From sequence record PZ715804.1: a stretch of DNA of 49,773 nucleotides; one strand, given 5' to 3'. Under the pieces are notes generated by a model that saw nothing but the letters and a program-made list of their open reading frames with translations, was not told where the DNA came from and made no database searches. Below are positions 2,858-40,108 of this stretch, in pieces. This stretch comes from a phage. A program made the position numbers and the translations under genes. How positions within the stretch are numbered: the first letter of the stretch is position 1; every line of letters starts with the position of its first letter.

Positions 2858-2880
2858 TACACCAATCAGGAGAAGTTAAG

Positions 2881-3528
2881 ATGCAATTATCACCAGAAAC
2901 AAACGAAATTCTTCCCGCACTGTTCAATGCTCGCAACAAATTTGCTAAAGCAAAGAAGGACGCAAAAAACAATCACCTGAAAAATTCATACGCAACCCTT
3001 GATGCAATGATGGCGGCCGTTAGCCCGGCGCTCACCGATAACGATATTATGATCCTGCAATCAATGCTGGACACCAGCACGGAAACAACCTTCCATCTTG
3101 AAACGATGCTGATTCACAAATCCGGGCAATGGGCCAAGTTCTTCATGATGATGCCTATTGCAAAGCGCGATCCTCAAGGTGTAGGCTCAGCGATGACGTA
3201 TGCGCGGCGTTACTCATTAGCCGCAGCGCTGGGGATTAGCCAGAGTGATGACGATGCTCAGCTTGCAGTGAAATCTGTCAAGGACTGGAAAAAAGAACTT
3301 GATGCGTGTGAAGATATCGAATCACTGAAAGAGGCATGGGCTAACGCTTACCGCCAGACGGACACGGCAAGCAAGTCAATCATTCAGGATCACTACAACG
3401 CACTTAAGGCTAAGTTTGAGATCGGTAAAGCTCGTGGTATTCGCCCGGCGCAACCGGAGCAGAAAAAACAGGTTGAAGCAACGAGCGCGAAGCCTGTACA
3501 ATCTCAATCAATCACCAACTTCGAATAA
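2881..3528 (+). CDS. erf: ERF-family single-strand annealing protein
   Basis: Start moved to ATG 2881 behind CCAATCAGGAG RBS; hallmark GSAMTYARRYSLAAALGI and YATLDAMMAAVSPAL segments. Confidence 0.7.
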   Translation: MQLSPETNEILPALFNARNKFAKAKKDAKNNHLKNSYATLDAMMAAVSPALTDNDIMILQSMLDTSTETTFHLETMLIHKSGQWAKFFMMMPIAKRDPQGVGSAMTYARRYSLAAALGISQSDDDAQLAVKSVKDWKKELDACEDIESLKEAWANAYRQTDTASKSIIQDHYNALKAKFEIGKARGIRPAQPEQKKQVEATSAKPVQSQSITNFE

Positions 3529-3573
3529 TCATCAGGGCGGCTTCGGTCGCCCATAAATTTTAGGAGAGAAATA

Positions 3574-3987
3574 ATGCATATTATCACTGGCGAGATCCGC
3601 AAAGAACCTAAGATTCTTGAACGTAACGGCGGCAATACTTATATCATCGAACTGGCAGAAAGCTATAAGCCTCGTGATGGCGATCGTGAATACACCAACT
3701 ACACATTCTTTTTTAGCGACGGTGGAAAGCCTGGCCTTGCTGATTGGTATCGTGAAGCGTTTCAGGTGGGTCGGGTAATTTCAGTATCTTGCGAATCTCT
3801 GAAGATTTATTCACGCGAGCATAACGGAACGGTTTATAACTCTCTGCAAGCGGCAGACTTCCCGAAGTTGGTATTTAGTCAACGAGGGCAAAGCAATCAA
3901 CAACGAGCACCGCAGCAACAACAGCGAACGCAATCACAGCCACAGCCAAATCCTCAATCAACTTTCGATGATGATATCCCGTTCTAA
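3574..3987 (+). CDS. ssb: single-stranded DNA-binding protein
   Basis: 137 aa; Gln/Pro-rich linker and C-terminal acidic tail ...TFDDDIPF identical in form to the E. coli SSB C-terminus. Confidence 0.85.
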   Translation: MHIITGEIRKEPKILERNGGNTYIIELAESYKPRDGDREYTNYTFFFSDGGKPGLADWYREAFQVGRVISVSCESLKIYSREHNGTVYNSLQAADFPKLVFSQRGQSNQQRAPQQQQRTQSQPQPNPQSTFDDDIPF

Positions 3988-3992
3988 CAAAA

Positions 3993-4014
3993 ATCCCCGC
4001 AATGCGGGGATTTT
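3993..4014. terminator. bidirectional intrinsic terminator between ssb and the tail fibre gene
   Basis: ATCCCCGC-AAT-GCGGGGAT hairpin flanked by A-run and T-run. Confidence 0.75.
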
Positions 4015-4015
4015 A

Positions 4016-5572
4016 TCATTTGGACTTCAACATTTTTATCTCTTCTTGTAACTCTTCAACTTTCTTTATTGTATCCTGTAAAGCTCTCATAGTGTCAAGC
4101 AATAAAGGAGTTGTATCAAGCTCAAGCCTTTCAACTTTTGGCCCGTTTAGCTCGTGGCTCTCATACACCCTTCTCTTAACATATAGATTGTCGATCTCTT
4201 CTATCTCCTGAGCTATAACACCTCTCCTTACCCTTTCTTGCTCATCATCGTTAAATATAAAGTTCCTAAATCTCATTGATTTTATGTTGTTGTATGCAAT
4301 GCTTGATTCATCATCCTTTATGCCGTGCTTTATATTTCTGTCAGATGCCGGAACCTGTTGGAAACTTCCAGCCCCTTGCGGTCCAGCGTAAGATATTTGC
4401 CCTGAAGCCATAAACCTGAAATGCATTTGCAGACCAATATTGCCTGCTCCATCCCTATTTTGAGTGCCTACTGATATTTGTGCCCTGGGCCATTCAGGAT
4501 TACCCGTAGTCATCATGCCAAATGCTACGCCGCCAACGTATCCCTGACCTCTGGTGTCACACGATCCAGCAATAAGTGATTGATAGTTTTCAGCACCACT
4601 ATCAGCGGTGTAAGCATTACCCTGGAAGCATGAAGCAGACCACATCTGGTTGTAACCCATAGATGTTTTCTGGCATAAAAACTGATTAGCTCTGAATCTA
4701 TTGTTAGTCTCGAAGTAGTTTGCCCCCTCATAAAATAATAAAGCCCCAGCATAACCATTATCGCTACGTTCTTTTCTGACGTAAATACCTGGCGTAGATA
4801 TTCCATCAGGTGACATAATCATCAATGATGACAATATGGACTGACTACCCCAGCTAGAACCGTCCCATGAATTCCTTCCTGCACCTATAGCGCCAGTGGT
4901 GTTAATAGTAAGAAAGTTAACAGCATCATTTTCACCTAACCCAATATTTTTTCTTGACTCTTTTTTATCCTCAAGACCAGCTAGATTGCCATCCTTAGTT
5001 AAAAGATTTTCAGCGTCAACGCTATTTGCTGCGTCCTTTGCTTCCTGCGCACTGACTGCTGCTGCATCTTTTGCGCTAACCGCTGCATCGCGTGCAGCGT
5101 TGGCTGCGTCACGCGCTAATTCAGCCTGATTTTGCGCAGCTTGAGAATCAGATTTCGCCTGATTCACATCAGCAACTATTTGCTCAAGTTTATTCATATC
5201 AGCAACTATTTGCTCAAGTTTATTCATATCAAGCTGATTTATCAGGTCTATAGCTGCCGCAATCTCAGTCTCTTTGCTTTGATAGTATCGAAGAGTCTCG
5301 GCGACGTTTTGAGCTAATCCGTTAACGGTTAGAGAGTCATTAAGTAGGATCACATACTTACCGTCATCGGCAGTCTGACCATCAGTAGAGATAGCCTTTA
5401 ATTCTGTATCACTAACGATATCGCTAATCACAGCTAGCTTAATTGGTTGCTCAAGGAACACGATAGTTGCACCTACGCGAATAAGAGCAAGCTGGTCTTT
5501 CCATTTTGTATCGGTTCCGTGAACCGTTCCGTCTGCATCCATTGATGCAGTGCCGCGTCGATATAAAGCCAT
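4016..5572 (-). CDS. tail fibre protein with C-terminal intramolecular chaperone (peptidase S74-like) domain
   Basis: 518 aa; coiled-coil region with duplicated MNKLEQIVAD; C-terminal segment RRGVIAQEIEEIDNLYV typical of S74 autoproteolytic chaperone domains; AAGGAG RBS. Confidence 0.75.
   Translation of the reverse strand: MALYRRGTASMDADGTVHGTDTKWKDQLALIRVGATIVFLEQPIKLAVISDIVSDTELKAISTDGQTADDGKYVILLNDSLTVNGLAQNVAETLRYYQSKETEIAAAIDLINQLDMNKLEQIVADMNKLEQIVADVNQAKSDSQAAQNQAELARDAANAARDAAVSAKDAAAVSAQEAKDAANSVDAENLLTKDGNLAGLEDKKESRKNIGLGENDAVNFLTINTTGAIGAGRNSWDGSSWGSQSILSSLMIMSPDGISTPGIYVRKERSDNGYAGALLFYEGANYFETNNRFRANQFLCQKTSMGYNQMWSASCFQGNAYTADSGAENYQSLIAGSCDTRGQGYVGGVAFGMMTTGNPEWPRAQISVGTQNRDGAGNIGLQMHFRFMASGQISYAGPQGAGSFQQVPASDRNIKHGIKDDESSIAYNNIKSMRFRNFIFNDDEQERVRRGVIAQEIEEIDNLYVKRRVYESHELNGPKVERLELDTTPLLLDTMRALQDTIKKVEELQEEIKMLKSK
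5162..5221. repeat. in-frame tandem repeat, two copies of 30 bp (one mismatch), inside the tail fibre coiled-coil
   Basis: ATTCA(C/T)ATCAGCAACTATTTGCTCAAGTTT twice, partial third copy follows; encodes MNKLEQIVAD twice on the minus strand. Confidence 0.85.
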
Positions 5573-5593
5573 AATATAAACTCCTTAAGTAAA

Positions 5594-7215: not shown

Positions 7216-9234
7216 GTGACAATGAACATTAAAAAGCAGATTGCATTACTTGGCGAGGACTATATAAAGCGAACTCAGGAGCGATTCACTGTCGGTGAGG
7301 TTGTTCCTTATCCGTACCAGGTTGTTGCTTATGCTGAGATCGCGAAACGCCTATCAAATTACGAGCATCCATTCTTTGTTAAAGCGTCAGTATCTGCGGG
7401 TAAGACCATCATTTTGGCTATGGTTGCAAAGCAGTGTCAGAAAATGGGCTTAAAAATGCTCGTTCTGGCTCGCCAGGGTGAGATTGTCGATCAGGATAGC
7501 GAGGAGATTGACAACTTTGGGGTAACTAACTCCATATTCTCAGCCTCATTAGGTATTAAGTCCTGCTATTTTCCTATCGTGGTAGGCTCAGAGGGTACTG
7601 TTGCAAATGGCCTCGACAATGAGCTTGCTGATTTCGTCCCGCAGGTAATTGGGATCGACGAGTGTCACCAGGTGGATTGGGAAGACCTTGCGCAAGCCAT
7701 TGAGGGCAAGGAAACAATGGAACAAATGAGGGGCGAGAAGGGAAAAATCATCATGGATGGAGATATTCCCCTGATTGGTAATGATGGAAAACCTTTGCTT
7801 GGGACTAAGCGCAGTCAGTACACGATCGTAATCATGGAAATGATGCGGCGCTGTAAAAAGGTTCACGGTCACGATCTCAGAATATTTGGTATGACTGGAT
7901 CTGAATTTCGTGGCGTAGTTCCTATTCTGGTAGAGAATCCGAAAGCATTGGGATTCTGGCGTGAGCGAGTAACTGATATCGACACAAACTATCTGATTGA
8001 GTTCGGTTCTGTTGTGCCGACAATATTCGGTTCAACAGACGGAGTTCATTACGATCTGGATAAGTTCAAGGCGTCGAGCGAGGACGGAGTGCAGGACTTT
8101 ACAGAGAAAGACATGAAGGCTATGGAAGATGAGATCCTTCATGATAAATCACTGACTCAGCGAATCATGCAAATGGTCGCCAAAAAGGCCGAAGAGCGTA
8201 ACGCTGTTCTCATTACATGTGCTGGGGTGCGTCACTGCAAAGAGGCGGCGGCGGCGCTTCCGCCAGGAAGCACCTATGCAATCATCACTGGCGATACTGA
8301 CACCAAAACGCGCAAGAAGATTCTTGATGATGTAAGGGCAGGAAAGATTAAATATACCTTTCAGGTCATGGCGCTCACGACTGGCGTTAACGTTCCAAAT
8401 TGGGATTTCAGCGTAATACTTCGCAAGATAGGGTCGCTCACGCTGTTGATTCAACTTTTGGGTAGGGGTATGCGTCTGCTTAAACCCTGGCAGGTTGCTG
8501 ATGGAATGGTTAAGCAGGACCATCTGGTATGGGATTTCGCAGGTACGATGGATGAGTTGGGTCAGCTTTATTTCGATCCGATACTTGAGCAAGCACAATT
8601 CCAAAAGCGCCTTGAAAACGGCAAAGATCCGAAAACATGTCCGAAATGCGGTTGCGTAAATAGCTTCTATGCTCGACGATGCGTTAATGTCATTGATGGT
8701 GAACGTTGCGATCATTTCTGGACTTCTCAGATTTGTGAGGACCAGGTTGACGAGCGCACCGGAAAAATCCTTGTTAAAGGATGCGGTGCAGAGAATGACG
8801 TTGTGGCCCGAGTCTGTCGTTGTTGTGATGTTTCGCTTGTCGATCCTAACCTGAAGTTATCCGGTAAGGCGTACACTAAGAATGACTGGTATGAAGTAAA
8901 GAATTTTGAGGTTACGCTAACCAAAAACCAGAAAGGCATAATATACAAATACACTCTTATTAACGATGATGGTGATGAGTTCAAGGCGTATGAAAAATTC
9001 TTCCCCGAGTCTGACTCTAAGATTTGCGGTACGATATGGAAAACTAAAGGTGTATTGCCACACGTATCGGATCCTAAAATGCGCCGATACTTTATCGGAA
9101 TGAAGAACGCCATCAAGATTTTGCAATACTCACATCATATTGCTCACCCGGTGCGCGTAACTCATCGTCGCAACCAGAAGAAAGAAGATATTATCTCACG
9201 AAAAGACTTTGGTATGGAGGATATCCCGGAATGA
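7216..9234 (+). CDS. DExH-box (SF2) DNA helicase with C-terminal Cys-rich zinc-binding region
   Basis: 672 aa; Walker A-like SAGKT; DECH box (IGIDECHQV); CPKCG...CRCC cluster; GTG start. Confidence 0.7.
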   Translation: MTMNIKKQIALLGEDYIKRTQERFTVGEVVPYPYQVVAYAEIAKRLSNYEHPFFVKASVSAGKTIILAMVAKQCQKMGLKMLVLARQGEIVDQDSEEIDNFGVTNSIFSASLGIKSCYFPIVVGSEGTVANGLDNELADFVPQVIGIDECHQVDWEDLAQAIEGKETMEQMRGEKGKIIMDGDIPLIGNDGKPLLGTKRSQYTIVIMEMMRRCKKVHGHDLRIFGMTGSEFRGVVPILVENPKALGFWRERVTDIDTNYLIEFGSVVPTIFGSTDGVHYDLDKFKASSEDGVQDFTEKDMKAMEDEILHDKSLTQRIMQMVAKKAEERNAVLITCAGVRHCKEAAAALPPGSTYAIITGDTDTKTRKKILDDVRAGKIKYTFQVMALTTGVNVPNWDFSVILRKIGSLTLLIQLLGRGMRLLKPWQVADGMVKQDHLVWDFAGTMDELGQLYFDPILEQAQFQKRLENGKDPKTCPKCGCVNSFYARRCVNVIDGERCDHFWTSQICEDQVDERTGKILVKGCGAENDVVARVCRCCDVSLVDPNLKLSGKAYTKNDWYEVKNFEVTLTKNQKGIIYKYTLINDDGDEFKAYEKFFPESDSKICGTIWKTKGVLPHVSDPKMRRYFIGMKNAIKILQYSHHIAHPVRVTHRRNQKKEDIISRKDFGMEDIPE

Positions 9235-9647
9235 TTACAGACAAAGGTGGTTATTTAGAATTTTACGAGAGAGATCCAAGCGACACTCGAAAGGAGGACG
9301 CTCATCAGGTGGATTGTGTATCCTGGCTGAAATACAATTTTCCTCACCTTCTATTTTGGCACACTGTCAATGAAGGTGAAAAAACAATCACATCGGCGCT
9401 CAGGGATGAGCAGGCCGGATTACTTAAAGGCGTGTCAGACTTCGTTATCCTGATTGGTGTTAACTCACGATACCCGTTTGCAGCAATCGAACTTAAGCGG
9501 GTTAATAAGTCAGGCAAAGGAAAGGCGTCACCAGTCAGCGACAAGCAAAGGGAATTTCTCCAAAAGGTCCGGGAGCGTGGCGGCTTCTCTGCCGTCGCAT
9601 ACGGATTCGGGCAATTCAAGATCGCAATTTACGAAATGATGAAATAG
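9231..9647 (+). CDS. VRR-NUC domain nuclease
   Basis: 138 aa; PD-(D/E)XK-type motifs VSDFVILIG ... AIELKRVN ... KQREFL; start overlaps helicase stop (ATGA). Confidence 0.6.
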   Translation: MITDKGGYLEFYERDPSDTRKEDAHQVDCVSWLKYNFPHLLFWHTVNEGEKTITSALRDEQAGLLKGVSDFVILIGVNSRYPFAAIELKRVNKSGKGKASPVSDKQREFLQKVRERGGFSAVAYGFGQFKIAIYEMMK

Positions 9648-10952: not shown

Positions 10953-11202
10953 AAGAGAGGTTTGGGATCACGCGAAGGAGTGCGGAATCTCAGACGATAT
11001 AGCACTAATAGCAAAATATTTCGATATAAAGGATGTTAGCATCATCTCAAACGGAAAGATTTCATTTATGGAAGATATGCCGAGAAAAATGCATAGAGTG
11101 CCAGCCACCCCATCACTTGAATTTTATCGTGAAGAAGGAAAGAGAATTGAGCGAGAACGAAAAACAGCAAAGAACAACAAGTCTTCCAGGCTTAAACATT
11201 AA
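10930..11202 (+). CDS. hypothetical protein (frame A of a possibly frameshifted gene)
   Basis: 90 aa ORF; overlaps the next ORF in another frame. Confidence 0.35.
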   Translation: MLIKKQGKREVWDHAKECGISDDIALIAKYFDIKDVSIISNGKISFMEDMPRKMHRVPATPSLEFYREEGKRIERERKTAKNNKSSRLKH

Positions 11203-11434
11203 CGCAGAAGATTATCAGACTATCTGGATCGGAAAAAAGCAGGTTAAGAAAATCCCTTTCTCTGATTGGTTGCCTCCTGACTTCGTTAATGTGCTTTGCA
11301 CCATCGGTATGGAACAGGAGTTGCATATAGGTTATTACTCACCAGGTAGAAACAGCATAATGCTTGAGGTTGATGGGAAACTTGTTGAGTTTAAATCTTC
11401 AGATCTCGGATTCTGGTTAAAGGCTGTGGCATGA
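11033..11434 (+). CDS. hypothetical protein (frame B; no start codon near where frame A stops, so a frame discontinuity is suspected)
   Basis: 133 aa ORF in +1 frame relative to 10930..11202; protein-like C-terminal half. Confidence 0.3.
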   Translation: MLASSQTERFHLWKICREKCIECQPPHHLNFIVKKERELSENEKQQRTTSLPGLNINAEDYQTIWIGKKQVKKIPFSDWLPPDFVNVLCTIGMEQELHIGYYSPGRNSIMLEVDGKLVEFKSSDLGFWLKAVA

Positions 11435-14659: not shown

Positions 14660-16228
14660 TTAACCCATCAGTCGAGGGTTGATGAAAACAATATCATCAA
14701 TCCGGCAAGTGTAGTTCATCTCTTCGAGCGTGATCAGCAGGCTGTCGATTCGCTCAGATACTTTCTGTTGACCGTTGAACGGCGTAACGTTCCGGCACTT
14801 TGCAACGATGCTATGAATAGGTGCGCGGCCTTTGTTCTTCTTCGCGATCTCAGTGATAACATCAATCAGCTTACGAGATTCAGCCTCATCACCTGCATAC
14901 CCGGCAGCGCTGGCAGATGACAGATAAGTCCTGGAAAGCTCATTAAAAATCATGATTGCTTCCTGCATTGTTTCAAGATCTATCTCACGATTGGAACGGT
15001 TCGGTGATTCACCCTCCCAATTCTTGATCGTGTGGAGAACTGAAGCAATACGCAAGGCGTGCTTATCGAACTTGCCGAGATGACCGCGTAGCATTGAGTG
15101 AGAGTATTTCCCACCTGCGGAGAAATCCGGTTCCATCGCCTGACGCGCAAGGTTTAATTCACGCATAGCATTACGACTAACAGATAGAACAACGTTTTCC
15201 TCCTTCATAATGTTGTGCACGAGTCGATAATATTTACTCACCAATCCTCGATCGACTTCCTTATACAGCGCATCACCATTTTCATCGCAAAGGATACGAG
15301 TACCTAAAAGCGGCTCCTCACGAACTAAAAGGAAGCGCTCAGACACACCGATACCTCGCTGGCCTGCGTCCATGATACCCTTGATTGTTTCATCCTGCGC
15401 AATAACGCAGATTGAACCGACCGGGCAAAGGGACAAGTTGTTATCCTGGTTGGAACGCGCGACCTCCATATGGTTTTTATCCCACGCCTTAAGGATAAGC
15501 TCGCTGTTTGATTTCTTATCTGAACCGCCATACGTAAGCCCGAGCAATGTATTGATTGCCGTTGCCTCGTCAGATATTACGGAGAAGTGACCTTGCACTG
15601 CCGCCACCTTCGCTAGACCTTCAGGTGTAGGATCTGATACCGCGAAAACAATATCAGCCATCTTCTTGATCTTTTCTTCCAGTTTTTCCTTGTCTTCGTA
15701 CAGCGCCGCCGTCGTGTTACCCTTCGGATCGTTTTTGATTTCTTTCTCGACCTGACGTAGCTGACTGGTTAAACGGATGCGTTCCTTTTTGCGCTCTTCA
15801 TTCAGTCGCTGAATCTCTGCGCGCATAGGAGTTATCGCCGCTGAGTTAATAGCGGACTTACCTGTTGATGGTGGCTGGCTGATTACCATGTAAAGCGCGG
15901 TCGGCTGTTCTTCGCCGTGATATTGCACCCAAAACTTCCCGAGCATCGCGGCTGAGATGCACCCAATGAAATGAGCGTACGCAGACGAAACCGGAAACTG
16001 TACAGACTCAGCCTTTGCCTTTGCATATTCGAATACCAGGTTATCGCCACCTAACGAAATCAGCGGGAACTTATCGTTTCCACTGTTGATATCGATCGGA
16101 TCTTGCCAAAACGAAACTGAATCCCCATAGCTGTTTTCACGAATTGCGATCGCCACCGGATTAACTCCAGTGCTATTTGCGATCTCAATAATCTGTTGGT
16201 AATTCAATTTTGGCTTAATATTAAACAT
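14660..16228 (-). CDS. P-loop NTPase, DUF3987-like (primase/helicase-associated)
   Basis: About 522 aa from ATG (or GTG 16231) behind AAGGAG RBS; Walker A-like PPSTGKS; driven by minus-strand cassette 16258-16302. Confidence 0.45.
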   Translation of the reverse strand: MFNIKPKLNYQQIIEIANSTGVNPVAIAIRENSYGDSVSFWQDPIDINSGNDKFPLISLGGDNLVFEYAKAKAESVQFPVSSAYAHFIGCISAAMLGKFWVQYHGEEQPTALYMVISQPPSTGKSAINSAAITPMRAEIQRLNEERKKERIRLTSQLRQVEKEIKNDPKGNTTAALYEDKEKLEEKIKKMADIVFAVSDPTPEGLAKVAAVQGHFSVISDEATAINTLLGLTYGGSDKKSNSELILKAWDKNHMEVARSNQDNNLSLCPVGSICVIAQDETIKGIMDAGQRGIGVSERFLLVREEPLLGTRILCDENGDALYKEVDRGLVSKYYRLVHNIMKEENVVLSVSRNAMRELNLARQAMEPDFSAGGKYSHSMLRGHLGKFDKHALRIASVLHTIKNWEGESPNRSNREIDLETMQEAIMIFNELSRTYLSSASAAGYAGDEAESRKLIDVITEIAKKNKGRAPIHSIVAKCRNVTPFNGQQKVSERIDSLLITLEEMNYTCRIDDIVFINPRLMG

Positions 16229-16257
16229 CACAATAAACTCCTTAGTTGACGGCGTGA

Positions 16258-16302
16258 ATGATACACCGTCAATGGTACACGCGTTTTGCAAAAAGTGCTA
16301 TT
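16258..16302 (-). promoter_or_regulatory. motif-spacer-(-10)-hairpin cassette (minus strand) upstream of the DUF3987-like ATPase gene
   Basis: Minus-strand reading TAGCACTTTTTGCAAAAC, 22 nt spacer, TATCAT. Confidence 0.5.
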
Positions 16303-16304: not shown

Positions 16305-16721
16305 TTATAAGTATTTGGCCTCAAAGGTTGTGCCGTCTGCGATACTAAAACCCACCTCTTCGCGGAATAAGGTCCAGCGGCAACCGTCCTCATCAAAGAT
16401 GTAACCAGCTACGCCACCGAGAGCGCGACCGCTTTCAACCTGGTAACGCTTTCCAACCTTGAATGATTTTTTCATCGTGTTGCGATGGTCAAGCCCGGTG
16501 CATTTAAGCGTTTTTGTTTTTAACTCGGTGAACTTCGCGAAGAAGATTTCATCAGATCCGTGAATCTGTAATTCATCATGCTCTTCAAGTTTTAAATACT
16601 TCCCGCATTTTAACTTTACTTCGCGAGTGCCATCATAGCGCTCACGACCTTTATACAGATTGTTTACTTCGAATCCTGTGATTTTGTCTGCTGAAGTGCA
16701 TTTAAGTTTAATGGTTTTCAT
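16305..16721 (-). CDS. hypothetical protein with internal repeats of the MKxxKC small-domain type
   Basis: 138 aa; AGGAG RBS within CCAATCAGGAG context; repeats IKLKCTSADKITGFEVNNLYKG and LKCTGLDHR...VGKRYQV. Confidence 0.5.
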   Translation of the reverse strand: MKTIKLKCTSADKITGFEVNNLYKGRERYDGTREVKLKCGKYLKLEEHDELQIHGSDEIFFAKFTELKTKTLKCTGLDHRNTMKKSFKVGKRYQVESGRALGGVAGYIFDEDGCRWTLFREEVGFSIADGTTFEAKYL

Positions 16722-16801
16722 TGCGTTCGCTCCTGATTGGTTATCTTGAATAAGGTCACTTTATCAAATGACCTTACGGCAATATTAACAAATCGTGCTA
16801 T

Positions 16802-17455: not shown

Positions 17456-17776
17456 TCATTTTTTACCGTCCCATGTTTGATATGCCGTAACCAGGTTAAT
17501 GCTATGGTCGAACTCGTCAACGCTAAGCGATCCAATTCGAACAAGCTCCTTGTTGTGCTTAATGTCAATCATCAGGCTGTATGGATGACCTGGCACGTAT
17601 TTAAATAGACGCTTGCTGTCGGCAATGTCTGCGTTGATTCCGTAGAATCGGCCTACTGCCGCCTTAACGCGCTCCATGATGTTTTTTTCGTGGATTGCCG
17701 CCGCGTTATTCAGTGCCGCAACCGTGCTTCCGTTAATCTTCGGTGACTTCGTTGTGATTTTGTAAGTGTGGTTCAT
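17456..17776 (-). CDS. hypothetical protein
   Basis: Start at internal Met (MNHTYK) behind AGGGGGA RBS. Confidence 0.5.
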   Translation of the reverse strand: MNHTYKITTKSPKINGSTVAALNNAAAIHEKNIMERVKAAVGRFYGINADIADSKRLFKYVPGHPYSLMIDIKHNKELVRIGSLSVDEFDHSINLVTAYQTWDGKK

Positions 17777-17792
17777 TATTCCCCCTAACCAG

Positions 17793-17993
17793 TCAGGATA
17801 GCTTTCGAGCTTCATCAATGATAACAGGCTCAAGGCGTTCAAGTCGAACGCGGAACGTGTTCATAAATCCATCGTTATTCTTCAATAACTCGAAAGCGTC
17901 CGTAGCTTCAATGGCGCTACTACCCATGTAAGAGATCACGCGCTTCTGTGTCTTTCGTGAGATCGCCACCACTCGGTAAATGTTATCGCTCAT
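17793..17993 (-). CDS. hypothetical protein
   Basis: Start at internal Met (MSDNIY) behind AAGGAGG RBS. Confidence 0.45.
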   Translation of the reverse strand: MSDNIYRVVAISRKTQKRVISYMGSSAIEATDAFELLKNNDGFMNTFRVRLERLEPVIIDEARKLS

Positions 17994-19584: not shown

Positions 19585-19616
19585 TGCAAATATCCTCTGA
19601 TTGGTTGATGTGATGA

Positions 19617-21817: not shown

Positions 21818-21849
21818 ATCAAAACGAGATACCAATCAGAGGATTCACC

Positions 21850-24276: not shown

Positions 24277-24320
24277 CACGAATTGCTAAACCTTCCGAAA
24301 GGCCATTTGTTATAATGGCC
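24274..24320 (+). promoter_or_regulatory. motif-spacer-(-10)-hairpin cassette
   Basis: TAGCACGAATTGCTAAAC, 22 nt spacer, TATAAT in hairpin GGCCAT...ATGGCC. Confidence 0.55.
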
Positions 24321-24356
24321 TTATTGAAGCAAGGCAACCAATCAGAGGAATAGGAT

Positions 24357-25893: not shown

Positions 25894-26340
25894 ATGAAAC
25901 ATTTGATTTGCATTGAAACGCCTAACGATGAATACACCCTGCACGGCATCGGAATGTTCAAAGGTCACTACATGACAGCAAGCATTTATGATGCGCGTCG
26001 CGGCGATGGCGATCTGATGATTAACTCAAAAGAGGTTAATCCGTACATCATGCAGAATCTTGGAAATAACGAATATATGGCCTACGGCTGCAATGCGGTG
26101 TACAAGAATATCAAGATCCGCAAGCGCGTCGTGCGAGCATTCAAGAAGATTGCAATGAAATACTGGAAAATGAGCAAGAAAGATGCCGGACGTTGGGCGC
26201 GCAACGTTGCAGATTCATACTTCTATCGTAACGGCGAATCCTGCTACTTTCTGATCGATGAGCTTATGGAAAACTACGGTGGCGACTTCAGTCAGGGTAG
26301 CTTTGACGCCTGGGCTGACTACGAGGTCGATTACTGGTAA
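25894..26340 (+). CDS. hypothetical protein
   Basis: Start at internal Met (MKHLICIET) behind GAGGGAA RBS, downstream of cassette 25821-25868. Confidence 0.5.
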   Translation: MKHLICIETPNDEYTLHGIGMFKGHYMTASIYDARRGDGDLMINSKEVNPYIMQNLGNNEYMAYGCNAVYKNIKIRKRVVRAFKKIAMKYWKMSKKDAGRWARNVADSYFYRNGESCYFLIDELMENYGGDFSQGSFDAWADYEVDYW

Positions 26341-26387
26341 TAGCACGAATTGCTAAAACTTGCTCAAGGGCATTTGATAGAATGCCC
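26341..26387 (+). promoter_or_regulatory. motif-spacer-(-10)-hairpin cassette
   Basis: TAGCACGAATTGCTAAAAC, 22 nt spacer, TAGAAT in hairpin GGGCAT...ATGCCC. Confidence 0.55.
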
Positions 26388-26423
26388 TTCGTTGAGTTAA
26401 GCAACCAATCAGAGGAATAAATC

Positions 26424-27035
26424 ATGGATAAAATTACCATTTGGGGCCAGACAATCAACCTGTTTCTCGGCACGCGCCGCGTAGCAATCTTTGACTTTGA
26501 TGGAACACTTAGCGATGGATCTGGTCGACTTCACCTGCTACCTACAAAGGATTTGCACTTAACTGAAAGCTGGTCCGAGTTTAACCGCGCGGCAATATTT
26601 GACAACCCTATCCAAAGCACGATCGATGTGATGAACTCTATGTATGCCGCTGGTCATCATGTGATCATTTTAACCGGGCGAAGTGATGAGGTGCGTTACG
26701 CATCTGAGTTGTGGCTTAAGCATCACGGCGCTCGATATGATTACCTGATTATGCGACCATACACCGATAACCGGAAAGACACAGTAATGAAAGAAGAGGC
26801 GGTGCGCGCGATCGGCATTGATAACATTCTGGCGGCCTGGGATGACTCACCGCAAATTATTCCATTATTCCGCTCACTTGGAATAACCACTTACGCTGTA
26901 GTTGACTATGGCGATAAAGTTCACGATCATTTAAAATCTCACGGGGTAGATGAGGTTTGCAATCATGAACCATCTGAGCCGCTACCGCCATTTGGTGAGA
27001 AAATTTGCATTAAGTGCAAGGAGTTATTGAAGTGA
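26424..27035 (+). CDS. HAD-superfamily phosphatase
   Basis: 203 aa; motif I DFDGTLSDG; ACCAATCAGAGGA RBS context. Confidence 0.65.
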   Translation: MDKITIWGQTINLFLGTRRVAIFDFDGTLSDGSGRLHLLPTKDLHLTESWSEFNRAAIFDNPIQSTIDVMNSMYAAGHHVIILTGRSDEVRYASELWLKHHGARYDYLIMRPYTDNRKDTVMKEEAVRAIGIDNILAAWDDSPQIIPLFRSLGITTYAVVDYGDKVHDHLKSHGVDEVCNHEPSEPLPPFGEKICIKCKELLK

Positions 27036-28936: not shown

Positions 28937-29098
28937 ATGCAAAAAACTAAAGACGAATCAGTCAAAATTGAAATTAAAGTAACTCGCAACGGTGAAACCA
29001 CTAGTTATAAAAAACGATTAAATCCTGGCGAGGCTGTTATTGGTCGCATTGCTGGCGTTATGATTAAGGCGCAGGAAGATGAAGCGATTCAAAGTTAA
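28937..29098 (+). CDS. small hypothetical protein
   Basis: 53 aa, not in track; ATG after AAGAGGA RBS. Confidence 0.35.
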   Translation: MQKTKDESVKIEIKVTRNGETTSYKKRLNPGEAVIGRIAGVMIKAQEDEAIQS

Positions 29099-29264
29099 AT
29101 TAATTATTCGAAAGATGGGAATGTTTTGCCAGTCGTGCAAGCAATCTTTCGAAACTGAATTATCAGCAACCAGTCAGGATGAAGCCATCACGAAAGCAAA
29201 AAAACTTTCCGGCGCTAACCTTGACACTCACAAAATAAATATTGAATTAATCAAGGAGATTTAA
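29079..29264 (+). CDS. small hypothetical protein (start uncertain)
   Basis: ORF track; contains CQSC pair; overlaps previous ORF. Confidence 0.3.
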   Translation: MKRFKVKLIIRKMGMFCQSCKQSFETELSATSQDEAITKAKKLSGANLDTHKINIELIKEI

Positions 29265-30141: not shown

Positions 30142-31710
30142 ATGATTCAATGGGAAGACCTTAACGCAACGCAGAAGTTAGCGATCAAGAAAATGAGCGA
30201 GGCCAATTTCGAAAAAATGATTCGGATCTGGTTCCAGCTTATGCAGGCGCAGCAGTTCCAGCCTAACTGGCATCACCTTTACCTATGTCACGAAGTGGAG
30301 GAAATAATTGCAGGCCGACGCGGCAACACTATCTTTAACGTCACGCCTGGTTCCGGTAAAACTGAAGTGTTCTCAATTCACCTTCCGGTATACGCAATGC
30401 TCAAGTGTAAAAAGGTGCGAAACCTTAACGTGTCGTTTGCCGACAGCTTGGTTAAGCGTAACAGTAAGCGTGTCCGTGAGATTATCAGCAGCAACGAATT
30501 TCAAGAGCTATGGCCTTGCAAGTTCGGCACATCGAAAGACGAGGAGATGCAGGTTCTTAACGAAGATGGAAAGGTTTGGTTTGAGTTGATATCCGCAGCG
30601 GCTGGAGGTCGTATTACAGGTTCGCGTGGTGGCTACATGACGCCGGGATTCTCCGGTATGGTAATGCTCGACGATATCGACAAGCCTGATGATATGTTCT
30701 CAAAGGTTAAGCGTGAGCGTACGCATATGCTACTGAAGAACACCATTCGCTCGCGCCGTATGCACAACGAAACGCCAATCATCGCAATTCAGCAGCGACT
30801 ACACGCACAGGATTCAACATGGTTCATGATGAATGGCGGGATGGGGATCGAGTTTGATCAAATCTCAATTCCGGCACTGGTGACTGAAGAATACGGAAAG
30901 ACGCTTCCTGACTGGTTACAACCATACTTCGAGCGCGACGTTTTGTCGTCTGAGTATGTAGAATTGGATGGAGTTAAGCATTACTCATTCTGGCCCAGCA
31001 AGGAAAGCGTTCACGACCTGTTAGCTCTTCGAGAAGCGGACCAGTATACCTTTGACTCTCAGTATCAGCAGAAGCCGATCGCGCTTGGTGGCTCCGTGTT
31101 CAATTCGGAGTGGTGGACTTATTACGGCAGCAGCCTTGACGCTGATGAGCCGGATCCTGGTAAATATGATTACCGTTTTATCACCGCTGATACCGCTCAG
31201 AAGACAGGTGAGCTAAACGACTACACAGTCTTTTGTTTATGGGGTAAGAAAAACGATAAGGTTTACTTTATCGACGGCATTCGCGGAAAGTGGGAAGCGC
31301 CGGATATGGAGAAGCAATTTACCGCTTTCGTCAACCAAGCATGGAGGCACAATAAATCAATGGGGGTGCTTCGTAAAATCTATGTGGAAGATAAGGCGAG
31401 TGGTACGGGCTTAATCCAGAATCTAAGGAAAAAGACTCCGATATCCATCACTCCATTGCAGCGTAACAAAGACAAAGTTACCCGAGCTATGGATGCCCAG
31501 CCAGTTATTAAAGCCGGGCGCGTGGTTCTGCCAGAAGAGCACCCCATGCTTGCGGAAATTATCGCGGAACATAGCGCGTTCACTTACGATGACACGCATC
31601 CGCACGACGATATTGTCGATAACTTCATGGACGCTGCAAACATTGAACTACTGACAATTGACGATCCTATCGAGAGAATGAAGCGACTCGCCGGGATGGT
31701 TAAGCGGTAA
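30142..31710 (+). CDS. terminase large subunit
   Basis: About 522 aa; Walker A-like VTPGSGKTEV, Walker B-like MVMLDDIDKPDD; start at second ATG behind GGGAGA RBS. Confidence 0.85.
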   Translation: MIQWEDLNATQKLAIKKMSEANFEKMIRIWFQLMQAQQFQPNWHHLYLCHEVEEIIAGRRGNTIFNVTPGSGKTEVFSIHLPVYAMLKCKKVRNLNVSFADSLVKRNSKRVREIISSNEFQELWPCKFGTSKDEEMQVLNEDGKVWFELISAAAGGRITGSRGGYMTPGFSGMVMLDDIDKPDDMFSKVKRERTHMLLKNTIRSRRMHNETPIIAIQQRLHAQDSTWFMMNGGMGIEFDQISIPALVTEEYGKTLPDWLQPYFERDVLSSEYVELDGVKHYSFWPSKESVHDLLALREADQYTFDSQYQQKPIALGGSVFNSEWWTYYGSSLDADEPDPGKYDYRFITADTAQKTGELNDYTVFCLWGKKNDKVYFIDGIRGKWEAPDMEKQFTAFVNQAWRHNKSMGVLRKIYVEDKASGTGLIQNLRKKTPISITPLQRNKDKVTRAMDAQPVIKAGRVVLPEEHPMLAEIIAEHSAFTYDDTHPHDDIVDNFMDAANIELLTIDDPIERMKRLAGMVKR

Positions 31711-31764: not shown

Positions 31765-33048
31765 ATGAAAATTGTTAAGCATGATGGATATAACGATATT
31801 TTTAACGGCGGTGCAGACGGATCGCCTAAGCCATTCTTTATGTCTGATGCATCATATCACGTCGGTTCTTTCTACAACGACAACGCAACCGCGAAGCGAA
31901 TTGTGGATGTTATCCCGGAAGAGATGGTGACGGCTGGTTTTAAAATGTCAGGCGTTAAGGATGAAAAAGAGTTCAAGTCTTTATGGGATAGCTACAAACT
32001 TGATTCAAGTCTGGTGGATCTTCTTTGTTGGGCGCGACTTTACGGTGGCGCGGCGATGGTGGCAATCATCAACGACAACCGGATGTTAACCAGTCAGGCA
32101 AAGCCTGGAGCCAAACTTGAAGGCGTCCGAGTTTACGATCGATTTGCTATCACTGTTGAAAAGCGAGTCACCAATGCAAGATCCCCTCGCTATGGTGAGC
32201 CTGAAATCTACAAGGTATCCCCTGGCGACAATATGCAGCCGTATCTGATTCATCACTCAAGAGTCTTTATTGCTGATGGTGAGCGAGTAACGCAACAGGC
32301 AAGAAAACAGAATCAAGGATGGGGAGCATCGGTATTGAACAAGTCACTGATTGATGCAATCTGTGACTATGATTACTGTGAATCTCTGGCTACTCAGATC
32401 TTGAGACGTAAGCAACAGGCTGTATGGAAGGTCAAAGGTCTTGCCGAAATGTGTGATGATGATGATGCTCAGTACGCCGCGCGCCTGCGACTTGCTCAGG
32501 TTGATGATAACTCCGGCGTGGGCCGTGCGATCGGTATCGATGCTGAGACTGAGGAATATGACGTTCTCAACTCTGATATCAGCGGAGTTCCTGAGTTCTT
32601 ATCAAGCAAGATGGACCGCATCGTCTCCCTATCCGGGATCCATGAGATTATCATCAAGAATAAGAACGTAGGCGGCGTATCAGCGAGCCAAAACACAGCG
32701 CTTGAGACTTTCTATAAGCTAGTCGATCGCAAGCGCGAGGAAGATTACAGGCCGCTTCTTGAGTTCTTGTTGCCGTTCATTGTTGATGAGGAAGAGTGGT
32801 CGATCGAGTTTGAGCCTTTGTCTGTTCCGAGTAAGAAAGAGGAATCAGAGATCACGAAGAATAACGTTGAGTCAGTCACGAAGGCTATCACTGAGCAAAT
32901 CATCGATCTGGAAGAAGCTCGCGACACGTTGCGATCCATTGCCCCTGAGTTCAAACTCAAGGATGGTAATAACATCAACATTCGCGAACCGGAAGAAACA
33001 ACCGAACCGGAGCCGGGATTAGGGGAGAAGTTAGAAGATGAAAATTAA
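31765..33048 (+). CDS. portal protein (putative)
   Basis: About 427 aa; start behind terminator plus GGAGGA RBS; acidic C-terminus; position after terminase. Confidence 0.6.
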   Translation: MKIVKHDGYNDIFNGGADGSPKPFFMSDASYHVGSFYNDNATAKRIVDVIPEEMVTAGFKMSGVKDEKEFKSLWDSYKLDSSLVDLLCWARLYGGAAMVAIINDNRMLTSQAKPGAKLEGVRVYDRFAITVEKRVTNARSPRYGEPEIYKVSPGDNMQPYLIHHSRVFIADGERVTQQARKQNQGWGASVLNKSLIDAICDYDYCESLATQILRRKQQAVWKVKGLAEMCDDDDAQYAARLRLAQVDDNSGVGRAIGIDAETEEYDVLNSDISGVPEFLSSKMDRIVSLSGIHEIIIKNKNVGGVSASQNTALETFYKLVDRKREEDYRPLLEFLLPFIVDEEEWSIEFEPLSVPSKKEESEITKNNVESVTKAITEQIIDLEEARDTLRSIAPEFKLKDGNNINIREPEETTEPEPGLGEKLEDEN

Positions 33049-33799
33049 TGGCGTTGCAACACAGTGGCGCTATCCTGAAATGAGCGAGCGCGCAATGTCG
33101 CGCTCCCTACAGGATGTTGCAGCCAAACTAACTGAAAAAATGCGTGACGAATTAAAGCCGATGAAATTTGACGCTACTGACGAAGAGATAGATCAGACAG
33201 AAAGGTCATTGCTTGATTACGTCGAATCACTCATCGCTCCGATTATTGGTTCTCTATCATCCGTTGCGCTCGCGATCTATAAATTCAACTCTAAGCAGTG
33301 GCTGCGCATCGCTCGCAATGCTGGAGGTAAGAAGAATCAAGCCGTGATGCTACTAGCCCTGATTGGTCCTACCGCTGCCGAAAGCTGGTACTCAGGACAA
33401 TATAATCTGTGGCGATCGCAGGTGACTACTTCTATCAGGAAATTTGCCGCCAACATGGTTACTGATTTCACTGATAAACTTCGTGCGGCATCCGGTCAGG
33501 GTAAAAGCAAGGATTTTGTTGTTGAACTTGCTAAGGAGCGATTTGGTATTTACCGTAGCTGGGCCAAAAATAGAGCGTCGGGAATTGTCGGAACCTGGAA
33601 CAGTAGACTGATGCGGCAGCGCATAAAAGACGCTGGTGTATCTTACTATTTCTGGCGCGGGGTGATGGATTTACGCGAACGTGAAAAACATGTAAGATGG
33701 GAAGGTAAGCGCATAGCGGTAGATTCCGATCACGTATTCCCGGGTGAAGAATACAACTGCCGCTGTTGGGCTGTTCCAGACTTTTCTACAGGAGATTAA
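33038..33799 (+). CDS. head morphogenesis / minor capsid protein (putative)
   Basis: 253 aa; position after portal; overlaps portal stop. Confidence 0.5.
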   Translation: MKINGVATQWRYPEMSERAMSRSLQDVAAKLTEKMRDELKPMKFDATDEEIDQTERSLLDYVESLIAPIIGSLSSVALAIYKFNSKQWLRIARNAGGKKNQAVMLLALIGPTAAESWYSGQYNLWRSQVTTSIRKFAANMVTDFTDKLRAASGQGKSKDFVVELAKERFGIYRSWAKNRASGIVGTWNSRLMRQRIKDAGVSYYFWRGVMDLREREKHVRWEGKRIAVDSDHVFPGEEYNCRCWAVPDFSTGD

Positions 33800-37706: not shown

Positions 37707-37719
37707 ATGGGGGGTAATT

Positions 37720-38130
37720 ATGAATCAAGAAACTTTAATTGCAGCTGTTGAGCAAATGCGAAAGCTGGTTCCGGCACTTCGTAAGGTTCCAGACGAAACG
37801 CTTTATGCGTGGGTAGAAATGGCTGAGCTTTTTGTATGCCAGAAGACCTTTAAAGACGCATACGTCAAAGCGATCGCTCTTTATGCATTACACCTTGCTT
37901 TCCTTGATGGGGCGCTAAAAGGTGAAGATGAGGATCTGGAATCGTACTCACGCCGCGTTACGTCATTCTCACTGAGCGGTGAATTTAGCCAGACTTTCGG
38001 AGAGGTTACGAAGAACCAGTCAGGGAACATGATGCTTTCTACGCCGTGGGGTAAGATGTTCGAACAGCTTAAAGCGAGACGCCGTGGTAGATTCGCATTA
38101 ATGACAGGACTCCGTGGAGGATGCCACTAA
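37720..38130 (+). CDS. head-tail connector protein (gp6-like, putative)
   Basis: 136 aa; position; N-terminal pattern LIAAVEQMRKLVPALRKVPDE. Confidence 0.45.
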   Translation: MNQETLIAAVEQMRKLVPALRKVPDETLYAWVEMAELFVCQKTFKDAYVKAIALYALHLAFLDGALKGEDEDLESYSRRVTSFSLSGEFSQTFGEVTKNQSGNMMLSTPWGKMFEQLKARRRGRFALMTGLRGGCH

Positions 38131-38937: not shown

Positions 38938-39325
38938 GTTATCAGCGGCGGCGCGAGCCGCTTTTCTATCAAAGTACAGAAACTTTCCTCACTACATGGA
39001 AAACAGAAATTTCACACCTCCTAAGGATGGCGGCATGTGGCTGAGGTTCAACTACATTGAGGGGGATACGCTTTATCTATCCATTGACAGAAAGTGTAAA
39101 TCTTACATCGCAATCGTTCAGATCGGCGTAGTGTTCCCTCCAGGCTCCGGCGTTGACGAAGCAAGATTGAAGGCAAAAGAGATTGCTGATTTTTTCAAAG
39201 ATGGTAAAATGCTTAACGTTGGTTATATTTTCGAGGGTGCAATCGTGCATCAAATTGTTAAACATGAAAGCGGGTGGATGATTCCGGTTCGCTTTACAGT
39301 ACGAGTAGACACAAAGGAGACTTAA
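38927..39325 (+). CDS. tail terminator-like protein (putative)
   Basis: 132 aa; position before major tail protein. Confidence 0.35.
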   Translation: MHYELSAAARAAFLSKYRNFPHYMENRNFTPPKDGGMWLRFNYIEGDTLYLSIDRKCKSYIAIVQIGVVFPPGSGVDEARLKAKEIADFFKDGKMLNVGYIFEGAIVHQIVKHESGWMIPVRFTVRVDTKET

Positions 39326-39326
39326 T

Positions 39327-39995
39327 ATGCACTTACCAAATGGCGCGCAAATTTTCGTGGAAACCTCTCGCGGAGAAGAGATAGAGGCGACCGCTGTCAC
39401 TAACGAAAAAAATCCTGTTGCTACAGTTGCATCTAAAGGTGACTTAGTAAAAGGTGATTACGTTATTGTAACTCAGTCAACTTGGGCTAAGATGGTTAGT
39501 CGAGTACTAATTGTTACTGACGCTCAGGAAACAAGTATTACTCTTGCTGGAATTGACACTACTGATACTCTTGTTTTCCCGGCTGGCGGTACAATGAGCT
39601 TTGCAAAAGTTACTGGTTGGACTGAGATCCCTTGCGTACAGGAGATTGGTCAGGACGGCGGCGAGCAGCAGTATTACACTTATCAGTGTTTGTCCGACGA
39701 TAAAGAACAGCAGATCCCTACGTTTAAATCTGCAATCTCGCTAACGTACACCTTCGCGCACGAATTTGATAACCCTATCTATCCTATTCTGCGTAAGCTG
39801 GATTCTTCTGGTCAGGTAACTGCGGTTCGGATGTATGTTCCAAAAGCGAACGAGATGCGCATGTGGGCTGGTATCTTGTCTTTTAACGACATTCCGTCTA
39901 CGCAAGTAAACGAAATGGAAACGGTACAACTAGCTGTATCCCTGAAAGGTGACTTTACTTTCATCTCATCCACTCTGGCATCGCCTGGTGCTTAA
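39327..39995 (+). CDS. major tail protein (putative)
   Basis: 222 aa; AAGGAG RBS; position immediately before chaperone pair and tape measure. Confidence 0.55.
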   Translation: MHLPNGAQIFVETSRGEEIEATAVTNEKNPVATVASKGDLVKGDYVIVTQSTWAKMVSRVLIVTDAQETSITLAGIDTTDTLVFPAGGTMSFAKVTGWTEIPCVQEIGQDGGEQQYYTYQCLSDDKEQQIPTFKSAISLTYTFAHEFDNPIYPILRKLDSSGQVTAVRMYVPKANEMRMWAGILSFNDIPSTQVNEMETVQLAVSLKGDFTFISSTLASPGA

Positions 39996-40007
39996 ATACC
40001 ATCCATA

Positions 40008-40034
40008 GGGGGCTTGCGTCCCCTTATTCATTTC
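40008..40034 (+). terminator. terminator after the major tail protein gene
   Basis: GGGGGC-TTGC-GTCCCC (one G-U) then U-rich tract. Confidence 0.5.
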
Positions 40035-40069
40035 TGTAAAATCATCCTATCAACTCTATTCACTTAACT

Positions 40070-40089
40070 TTTAACAAAAAGTGCTATCA
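40070..40089 (-). promoter_or_regulatory. motif copy in inverted orientation abutting the tail chaperone RBS
   Basis: Plus-strand TTTTAACAAAAAGTGCTATC then CCAATCAGGAG RBS. Confidence 0.4.
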
Positions 40090-40108
40090 ACCAATCAGGA
40101 GAAACATC

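Follow-up and report, generated by a model that had tools for sequence, protein, structure and literature searches.

A dispersed, exactly conserved nine-base word in T1-like phages as a candidate DNA-level recognition signal

Three kinds of short genomic word come closest to the element described here: Chi (5'-GCTGGTGG-3'), which is read by RecBCD; the octamers of FtsK and SpoIIIE (KOPS and SRS), which guide a DNA translocase; and the DNA uptake sequences of Haemophilus (USS) and Neisseria (DUS), which have been interpreted as a tag of 'self'. Every Chi motif put forward for Proteobacteria is a one-step variant of GCTGGTGG. We describe a word of a different sequence, ACCA[A/G]TCAG, that recurs along a phage DNA of 49,773 nucleotides (sequence record PZ715804.1; 'the window' hereafter means this whole stretch, to which coordinates refer unless another genome is named). 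The window belongs to a T1-like siphovirus (Tunavirus, Drexlerviridae) with about 90% identity to vB_EcoS_Chapo, SH6, Shfl1 and JMPW1 and 92.7% identity to T1 over a 44 kb alignment. The genome is apparently complete and circularly permuted, with T1 coordinate 1 (the pac end) falling near window position 19,740, as judged from the offsets of high-scoring segment pairs. Searches of the literature for the literal string, and for motifs and promoters of Drexlerviridae or T1-like phages, found no prior description of the word, although a mention in the T1 genome paper (Virology 2004) is possible.

The word is exact, all-or-none and the most over-represented 9-mer of the genome. In a k-mer census its two forms, ACCAATCAG (A at the centre, or A-type, 15 copies) and ACCAGTCAG (G-type, 13 copies), are the top two 9-mers of the window, where an order-3 model expects about 0.5 to 0.6 of each. 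Taken together there are 28 exact copies versus 0.9 expected, compared with 22 versus 17 at one mismatch and 233 versus 199 at two. The centre base across ACCANTCAG is A in 15 cases, G in 13, T in three and C in none, the other positions being essentially invariant, and a logo pooled over three lineages reads (a)A-CCARTCAG-V, with about 16.5 bits and anything but T after the word. The central-T variants (ACCATTCAG, at 34513 and 43477 on the plus strand and 41238 on the minus strand) are all kept at orthologous sites in T1, which has four in total; their frequency is somewhat above chance, and the central position may be weakly tolerant of T. No second conserved element was found within 40 nucleotides on either side of the word, which rejects a bipartite, type I-like site, and copies with up to two mismatches are not clustered, which rejects an iteron or pac-box array.

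An earlier reading of the window from its letters and open reading frames (ORFs) alone, the sequence-only reading, had taken the motif for a translation-initiation context shared by at least seven genes, extended by a trailing (A/G)GGA, and had proposed counting exact and one-mismatch copies against shuffled controls. The exact form, CCAATCAG, occurs 15 times in the window versus 1.69 +/- 1.28 in dinucleotide shuffles (none of 100 reaches 15), with the one-mismatch variants of the 9-mer at background as given above. All seven start-proximal copies are real, each directly abutting GAG or AGGA, with the ATG of the named ORF 10-12 nucleotides downstream, and the suggestion that conservation here goes beyond the needs of ribosome binding is supported. 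These leader copies are as follows.

2861..2869, plus strand: ACCAATCAG-GAGA in the leader of erf; Shine-Dalgarno (SD) sequence GGAG at 2869-2872, likely true ATG at 2881; retained at T1 31497 and in the erf leader of Webervirus
16733..16741, minus strand: ACCAATCAG in the leader of gene 16305..16721 (T1 ST7-like), ATG at 16721; kept in T1 and Webervirus
19597..19605, minus strand: ACCAATCAG in the leader of the DNA methyltransferase gene 18880..19584 (matches phrog_757), ATG at 19584
21831..21839, plus strand: ACCAATCAG in the leader of gene 21850..22080, ATG at 21850; kept in T1 and Tlsvirus
24337..24345, plus strand: ACCAATCAG in the leader of a short interrupted ORF, ATG at 24357, stop after 17 codons; a T1 homology boundary lies inside the word
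26404..26412, plus strand: ACCAATCAG in the leader of the polynucleotide kinase/phosphatase gene 26424..27035, ATG at 26424; kept in T1 (4928)
40090..40098, plus strand: ACCAATCAG in the leader of the tape-measure chaperone gene 40109..40426, ATG at 40109; kept in T1 and Webervirus, ACCACTCAG in Tlsvirus

The remaining 21 of the 28 copies lie away from start codons, most of them antisense to the gene in which they sit, and this largely contradicts a translation signal as the primary explanation. Eight more exact copies of CCAATCAG are inside long ORFs, seven of them antisense, and the 13 copies of the sister word ACCAGTCAG are all away from starts. The part of the described motif that holds throughout is ACCARTCAG, whereas the trailing (A/G)GGA belongs to the leader copies alone, as their SD, and is not kept at the others. 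In all, seven copies are in leaders (each in the sense orientation), one lies over a promoter -10 element on the opposite strand, and 20 are intragenic (14 antisense, six sense):

23598..23606, minus strand: ACCAGTCAG over a promoter; read on the other strand as CTGACTGGT, it overlaps the TGGTATAAT -10 in the promoter-like cassette of gene 23642; kept in T1, A-type in Tlsvirus
1166..1174, plus strand: ACCAGTCAG, antisense in a cor-like ORF on the minus strand
2363..2371, minus strand: ACCAGTCAG, antisense in the recE-like gene 1742..2806
3740..3748, minus strand: ACCAATCAG, antisense in the SSB gene 3574..3987; orthologous T1 site G-type
7771..7779, minus strand: ACCAATCAG, antisense in the helicase gene 7216..9234
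9450..9458, minus strand: ACCAATCAG, antisense in the VRR-NUC gene 9231..9647
9530..9538, plus strand: ACCAGTCAG, sense in the VRR-NUC gene, 80 nucleotides from the 9450 copy
11262..11270, minus strand: ACCAATCAG, antisense in 11033..11434; orthologous T1 site G-type
15761..15769, minus strand: ACCAGTCAG, sense in the DUF3987 helicase gene 14660..16291
17788..17796, plus strand: ACCAGTCAG, antisense in 17456..17842
20353..20361, plus strand: ACCAATCAG, sense in 20277..20852 (T1 ST77-like)
21634..21642, minus strand: ACCAGTCAG, antisense in 21301..21771
29169..29177, plus strand: ACCAGTCAG, sense in 29079..29264
30908..30916, minus strand: ACCAGTCAG, antisense in the large terminase gene; still the word in Webervirus and, as the A-type, in T1 and Tlsvirus
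32089..32097, plus strand: ACCAGTCAG, sense in the portal gene
33359..33367, minus strand: ACCAATCAG, antisense in the head-morphogenesis gene
38015..38023, plus strand: ACCAGTCAG, sense in 37720..38130
43048..43056, minus strand: ACCAGTCAG, antisense in the tape-measure gene; orthologous Tlsvirus site A-type
45221..45229, minus strand: ACCAATCAG, antisense in the minor tail gene; kept in T1 and Webervirus
46944..46952, minus strand: ACCAGTCAG, antisense in the tail-tip (J-like) gene
49338..49346, minus strand: ACCAATCAG, antisense in the tail-tip (J-like) gene; the sole aligned site lost in T1

Intragenic copies use every stop-free reading frame in both orientations. In nine of the 14 antisense copies the gene uses the codons CTG-AYT-GGT (Leu-Ile/Thr-Gly), and the antisense preference plausibly stems from the coding ease of this triplet series; across genomes sense and antisense copies are near parity (13:15, 11:14 and 9:15). 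When synonymous codons were shuffled with proteins and codon usage kept, the count fell from 28 to 7.9 +/- 1.2 (maximum 11), essentially the untouched non-coding copies. The shuffle removes the excess: the word is held within ORFs by synonymous-codon choice, and a codon or peptide artefact is rejected.

Comparison with relatives points the same way. In T1 the word is kept at 24 of 25 aligned sites, versus a 62% background for eight fixed positions (p = 9e-5), with three central A/G swaps. At about 68% nucleotide identity to the window, Tlsvirus retains three of 13 sites versus a background of 6-7% (p = 0.057) and Webervirus three of seven versus about 6% (p = 0.006), and the sites that persist in these distant relatives include terminase, tape-measure and tail genes. 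Turnover of the remaining sites fits selection on density. Copies are also more evenly spaced than random, the coefficient of variation of the gaps being 0.64 in the window, 0.69 in T1 and 0.68 in Tlsvirus versus about 0.95 for random placement (P = 0.009, 0.043 and 0.036, respectively), and their orientation alternates beyond random in all four genomes compared, each weakly (P = 0.08-0.19; Stouffer z = 2.76, three lineages). No consistent polarity or orientation switch point was found along the genome, and an origin- or pac-centred skew is rejected, as the trends in the window and Tlsvirus are opposite.

The word is present across sampled Drexlerviridae at roughly one per 2 kb, on both strands and mostly within genes, in subfamilies ranging from 43% to 50% GC, with the word or its core at 20-28 copies per genome versus about 1-2.6 expected:

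T1: 25 copies of the 9-mer (about 0.8 expected), 25-26 of the word or its core; both 9-mers are the top two
Tlsvirus, two genomes: 24 and 23 copies of the 9-mer (about 0.8 expected), 28 of the 8-mer in each
Webervirus KP1801: 24 copies of the core CCARTCAG
Braunvirinae: 27 copies of the 8-mer (2.4 expected)
Pseudomonas phage PsgS01F (Drexler-like): 20 copies of the 8-mer (2.6 expected)
Pantoea myovirus PSKM (outgroup): one copy of the 9-mer (about 0.8 expected), eight of the 8-mer

In Webervirus the first A of the word is relaxed (A 14, C 5, T 4, G 1). PSKM shares terminase, head genes, helicase/VRR-NUC, primase, RecE/Erf and Dam with the window, yet is without enrichment of the word. In Escherichia coli K-12 the 8-mer occurs 20 times in 100 kb (13 and seven per 50 kb); in a 50-kb segment it ranks about 2000th among 8-mers, with no fixed preceding base and no peak over its one-mismatch neighbours, and the 9-mer is found four times per 50 kb versus 28 in the phage window.

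PSKM has an exact word of its own, CTGGCTGG(G), present in 17 copies with a 13:4 strand bias, mostly in frame as Leu-Ala-Gly (sites include 4612, 13986, 15584, 17817 and 21780). This word is similar to Chi with one base added, and likewise to the T1-family word when that is read as its complement. The difference between the two words could reflect a reader and a word that co-evolve, which we offer as a lead and not as a demonstration; that the copies in TerL are one orthologous site is rejected, as their frames differ (0 in PSKM, 1 in the window).

Given that the word is exact, dispersed, maintained by codon choice, conserved between relatives, evenly spaced and unexceptional in the host, we consider it on balance probable that it is a selected DNA-level recognition signal that a trans-acting factor reads throughout the chromosome, with the leaders as one setting among several. 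The reader would probably be a phage-encoded protein. Such a cis-acting word would fall in the same logical class as Chi, KOPS and the DNA uptake sequences, and might serve as a Chi-like mark of 'self' that modulates an enzyme processing DNA ends or tracking along DNA, so that phage DNA, while replicating and as concatemers, would be handled differently from host DNA. T1 degrades host DNA. Candidate enzymes would be the phage SNF2-type helicase with its VRR-NUC nuclease, RecE, and host RecBCD. The specific proposal, that T1-like phages carry a Chi- or USS-like code of 'self' about every 2 kb, read by a phage-encoded machine to protect, prime or process their own DNA, is a tentative one, and it is with low confidence that we rank a Chi-like self-marking role ahead of priming, of a double-stranded DNA (dsDNA) enzyme or architectural protein, of a purely translational role and of no function.

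The leader copies may be accommodated under a DNA-level signal. Leaders of 25-45 nucleotides would be almost the only DNA free of coding constraint, and hence would offer room for the word, and the 3' end of the word (CAG, then G or A) could double as the start of GGAG or GAGG; the register of 10-12 nucleotides from the ATG would then follow from this merging of CAG with the SD.

Several observations weigh against a DNA-level signal of this kind. In two subfamilies about 25% of the copies abut the SD very precisely, and this, together with the A-type bias of the leader copies, may point to an additional role at the RNA level. Phage and host differ only modestly in density (about 3-fold by the 8-mer, about 7-fold by the 9-mer), the host sample being 100 kb. 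The tests of spacing and alternation are not fully independent, some sites being orthologous between genomes. Strand polarity is weak and is confounded by the in-frame ease of the CTG-AYT-GGT tripeptide: CTGAYTGG lies on the structural-gene strand in 16/28, 18/24, 17/24, 14/27 and 12/20 cases in five genomes, or about 62%. Host Chi or a Chi variant is rejected as the identity of the word, which differs from GCTGGTGG at three or more positions and in length. Finally, Pfam and PHROGs matches for 30 proteins gave nothing specific as a candidate reader. They comprise a primase with a T7 gp4/P4-alpha-type zinc ribbon, a DUF3987 helicase, the helicase and VRR-NUC pair, a Cro-like regulator and an SbcD-like exonuclease, the rest being proteins of unknown function.

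Other known sites were also compared with the word. Integration host factor (WATCAR-N4-TTR), the DnaA box, sigma-54 (whose -24/-12 spacing is off by two nucleotides), the CsrA GGA site and the Y-box/CspA sequence CTGATTGG (which fits the A-type only) were set aside, since the exactness of the word, its G-type form and the missing flanks do not fit. Chi itself (GCTGGTGG) occurs zero times in the window. The window is likewise without EcoKI (AACN6GTGC) and EcoBI (TGAN8TGCT) sites, and GATC is slightly enriched (237 versus about 194 expected under a uniform model).

Among the alternatives, the one that survives best is that ACCAAUCAG beside the SD acts in the mRNA, as a translational enhancer or as the operator of a RegA-like RNA-binding regulator, with the intragenic copies unrelated. 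The leader zone makes up about 1.6% of the position-by-strand space and holds 25% of the copies, an approximately 15-fold enrichment (binomial p = 9e-5, from a crude ORF map that credits only five of the seven leader copies, the ORF-based gene map mis-assigning 2861 and 26404 to overlapping ORFs). All seven leader copies are A-type versus eight of 21 elsewhere (Fisher p = 0.007), which hints at an extra constraint in the leader setting, and the word is predicted to be single-stranded there. Leader copies are always sense and abut GAG or AGGA, and some recur at the same genes across subfamilies: T1 has five, and Webervirus six of 24 in the same register, including erf, the tape-measure chaperone and a third gene whose leader and first codons align with the T1 ST7-like gene of the window. 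The expectation that related phages would show the same leader is thus borne out in T1 and, partly at the same genes, in Webervirus, but not in Tlsvirus, where only one or two of the 24 copies are in leaders and the word has been lost at the chaperone leader and at the cassettes orthologous to 24337 and 26404. Moreover, 75% of window copies are off starts and mostly antisense, the exact word is kept in ORFs through codon choice, the genes served mix early and late functions, and about 19 other promoter cassettes (described below) do without it. Complementarity to 16S or 23S rRNA does not exceed chance (against 16S the top score is 8/9 with a G-U pair counted, and 104 of 300 shuffled words do as well), so that an rRNA-pairing enhancer is rejected; leader RNA folds are no more stable than shuffles (z about 0) and no Rfam family matches the word leaders, rejecting a conserved leader structure or known RNA family. 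The link to translation initiation therefore holds as a strong concentration just 5' of the SD, always in the sense orientation (7/7), but for a minority of copies only. A second, translation-linked constraint may still act on the leader copies; as an account of the word as a whole, we regard a translational role as rather unlikely.

Even spacing and strand alternation, with about 12-16 copies per strand roughly 3-4 kb apart, would also suit replication priming or helicase loading, in which lagging-strand primers would begin at the word or at its CTG complement, made by the phage zinc-ribbon primase together with the DUF3987 helicase or else by host DnaG. The word begins with ACCA, a T7 primer sequence, its complement begins with CTG, the DnaG site, and the primase carries the zinc ribbon of the T7 gp4/P4-alpha type. 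Known primases, however, read only about three nucleotides, and an exact 9-bp site would have no precedent; Webervirus does not conserve the first A, and PSKM has the same primase but not the word. We consider this unlikely.

Restriction, modification and nicking specificities are typically all-or-none and may leave one position open to either purine, as the word does; this would suit a dsDNA target of a sequence-specific enzyme or architectural protein, whether a methyltransferase, another modification enzyme, a nickase or a monomeric DNA-binding protein that organises or condenses the genome. Orientation is nearly neutral, the combined spacing is even, and a family-wide Dam-type methyltransferase and a second methyltransferase are encoded. 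Modification sites, on the other hand, are not normally over-represented or evenly spaced, T1 Dam is reported to be GATC-specific, T1 has the word but not the second methyltransferase, and we know of no nicks in T1 DNA; this class of explanation seems improbable.

That the word has no function, being a by-product of codon or peptide usage, of mutation or repair bias or of promoter cassette spread, is very improbable: enterobacterial coding DNA does have the 8-mer at about 3-fold over uniform expectation, nine of the 14 antisense copies are in-frame CTG-AYT-GGT and two leader copies sit in paralogous cassettes, but the same word is found across subfamilies of differing GC content in all frames and both orientations, its one-mismatch neighbours are not raised, and site conservation above background in T1 and Webervirus, together with the removal of the excess by the codon-preserving shuffle, largely refutes it.

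A promoter-like unit recurs about 26 times in the window, and six of the seven leader copies belong to it. The unit opens with ATAGCAC-N7-TAAA(A/C), which overlaps the -35-like hexamer TTGCTA. Next comes a GC-rich inverted repeat, placed in the promoter spacer or around a TGnTATAGT-type extended -10, and the unit closes with an A/C-rich leader and then the SD. The units upstream of leader copies are as follows.

2807..2856, plus strand: upstream of the erf word; marbox-like block at 2807-2825, GAGGTG/CACCTC (2837-2856) enclosing TGTTATAAT
16742..16801, minus strand: upstream of the 16733 word; ATAGCACGATTTGTTAA, AAGGTCA/TGACCTT around TGATAAAGT
19606..19661, minus strand: upstream of the 19597 word; ATAGCATTTTTTGCTAA ... 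GGTATGAT
21768..21830, plus strand: upstream of the 21831 word; ATAGCACTAATTGTTAAAA, GGGGTA/TACCCC around TGCTATAGT
24273..24336, plus strand: upstream of the 24337 word; ATAGCACGAATTGCTAAAC, AAGGCCAT/ATGGCCTT around TGTTATAAT
26340..26403, plus strand: upstream of the 26404 word; ATAGCACGAATTGCTAAAA, AAGGGCAT/ATGCCCTT around TGATAGAAT

The 24273 and 26340 cassettes are paralogous (78% identity over 91 nucleotides), while stem sequences generally differ between cassettes, the structure being kept and the sequence not. The sequence-only reading had also raised the possibility that the word is part of a mobile cassette. This does not hold for the word, as only seven of the approximately 26 cassettes carry it, orthologous cassettes in Tlsvirus are without it, and homology breakpoints with T1 do not track it (P = 0.66). 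Breakpoints lie at a median of 311 nucleotides from a cassette versus 693 for random positions (P = 0.06), and one T1 indel boundary falls inside the word at 24337.

Examples of the GC-rich inverted repeats are found at 2837-2856, 9662-9690, 10685-10705, 21046-21066, 21790-21815, 24298-24322 and 26366-26390. At least one such hairpin is marked as a rho-independent terminator in the T1 record (T1 38973-39001; compare the window cassette at 9644), which suggests that hairpin and promoter form combined terminator-promoter units. The 5' block of the cassette resembles the E. coli marbox of Mar, Sox and Rob, whose consensus is AYNGCACNNWNNRYYAAAY as printed in PMC3709825: 21 sites match it with at most one mismatch versus 0.9 expected. 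The promoter-like block is found at about 26 sites (for example 5593-5611, 18414-18432 on the minus strand, 24273-24291 and 29544-29562), and the same promoter-like repeat is among the top k-mers in T1, other Drexlerviridae and myovirus PSKM. From this resemblance, early and middle promoters of T1-like phages may depend on Rob/MarA/SoxS or on a phage factor of similar specificity.

Two marbox-like blocks are antisense in the late plus-strand structural operon (36306-36324 and 40069-40087, both minus). The word in the chaperone leader (40090..40098) abuts the latter, reverse-oriented block. That block is kept in T1, is accompanied by TGATAGGAT as a -10-like element and leads directly into the hairpin that terminates the major tail gene; the predicted promoter could yield a very short antisense RNA.

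The cassettes also bear on gene starts. The erf start given by the ORF caller (2848) and by the T1 annotation (T1 31484) falls within the TATAATG of the -10 hairpin, and the ATG at 2881, 11 nucleotides past the word and after GGAG, is more plausible. The ORF behind the 24337 leader ends after 17 codons, where Chapo and Shfl1 have a 68-amino-acid gene at the corresponding position (window 24357-24411 and 24412-24546). Relative to T1 the window has a 741-bp insertion here (24342-25082) with a DUF3850/ASCH-type gene, an 'RNA-binding protein' in RefSeq. Elsewhere, a perfect 55-bp tandem duplication (35451-35560) spans the SD, ATG and first 13 codons of a T1 ST48-like gene and is single in T1; since 55 is not a multiple of three, only the second ATG (35520) yields the full protein. 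The duplication could be real or an assembly artefact.

If read as proposed, the word implies an unrecognised sequence-specific DNA transaction, be it self-recognition, priming, nuclease control or genome organisation, and could itself be used to search directly for its reader protein. T1 is one of the classical phages, and its family, Drexlerviridae, supplies some of the commonest coliphages and Klebsiella phages in therapeutic and engineering use. In T1-like phages, genome recoding or codon optimisation would remove about 20 sites under selection. Cassette anatomy would allow several start codons, that of erf among them, and promoter annotations to be corrected, and the marbox-like block suggests that early transcription in T1 may be tied to host Rob/MarA/SoxS, which can be tested.

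Among described elements, the leader copies resemble translational enhancers such as the T7 gene 10 epsilon sequence, in that a conserved block of 9 nucleotides directly precedes the SD of several phage genes, but epsilon pairs with 16S rRNA and is confined to leaders, whereas the phage word has no rRNA complementarity and is mostly intragenic. The T1-type cassettes recall the promoter-stem-loop (PeSL) cassettes reportedly described in T4-type phages by Arbiol et al. (2010), being repeated intergenic units of early-type promoter, stem-loop and ribosome-binding site, possibly at module boundaries; unlike those elements, the word is in seven of about 26 cassettes and mainly outside them, and the link between cassettes and breakpoints is suggestive only. 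A T7 gp4-type primase site is a trinucleotide core with a cryptic 3' base, at which the primer begins with a purine in a fixed place, whereas the word has nine exact positions. Like KOPS and SRS it is short, exact and genome-wide, but KOPS are strongly polar toward dif and the phage word is without consistent polarity or switch point. The DNA uptake sequences share more with it, being exact 9-12-nucleotide words at about one per 1-2 kb, in both orientations and mostly genic, and the phage word is likewise rarer in the other genomes tested, with a 3- to 7-fold contrast to the host. They serve the uptake machinery of naturally competent bacteria, whereas the word is in a phage genome; we know of no selective uptake step for T1-like phages, and headful packaging needs only pac. 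Compared with Chi, the word differs in sequence, in its setting in a virulent phage with zero Chi, in its weak or absent polarity and in having a quarter of its copies locked to an SD. In other respects the two are alike: each is an exact word of 8-9 nucleotides, strongly over-represented and selected, that is scattered in coding DNA in any frame with a copy every few kb or so. CTGAYTGG, to which the word is complementary, is G/T-rich and shares CTG...TGG with Chi.

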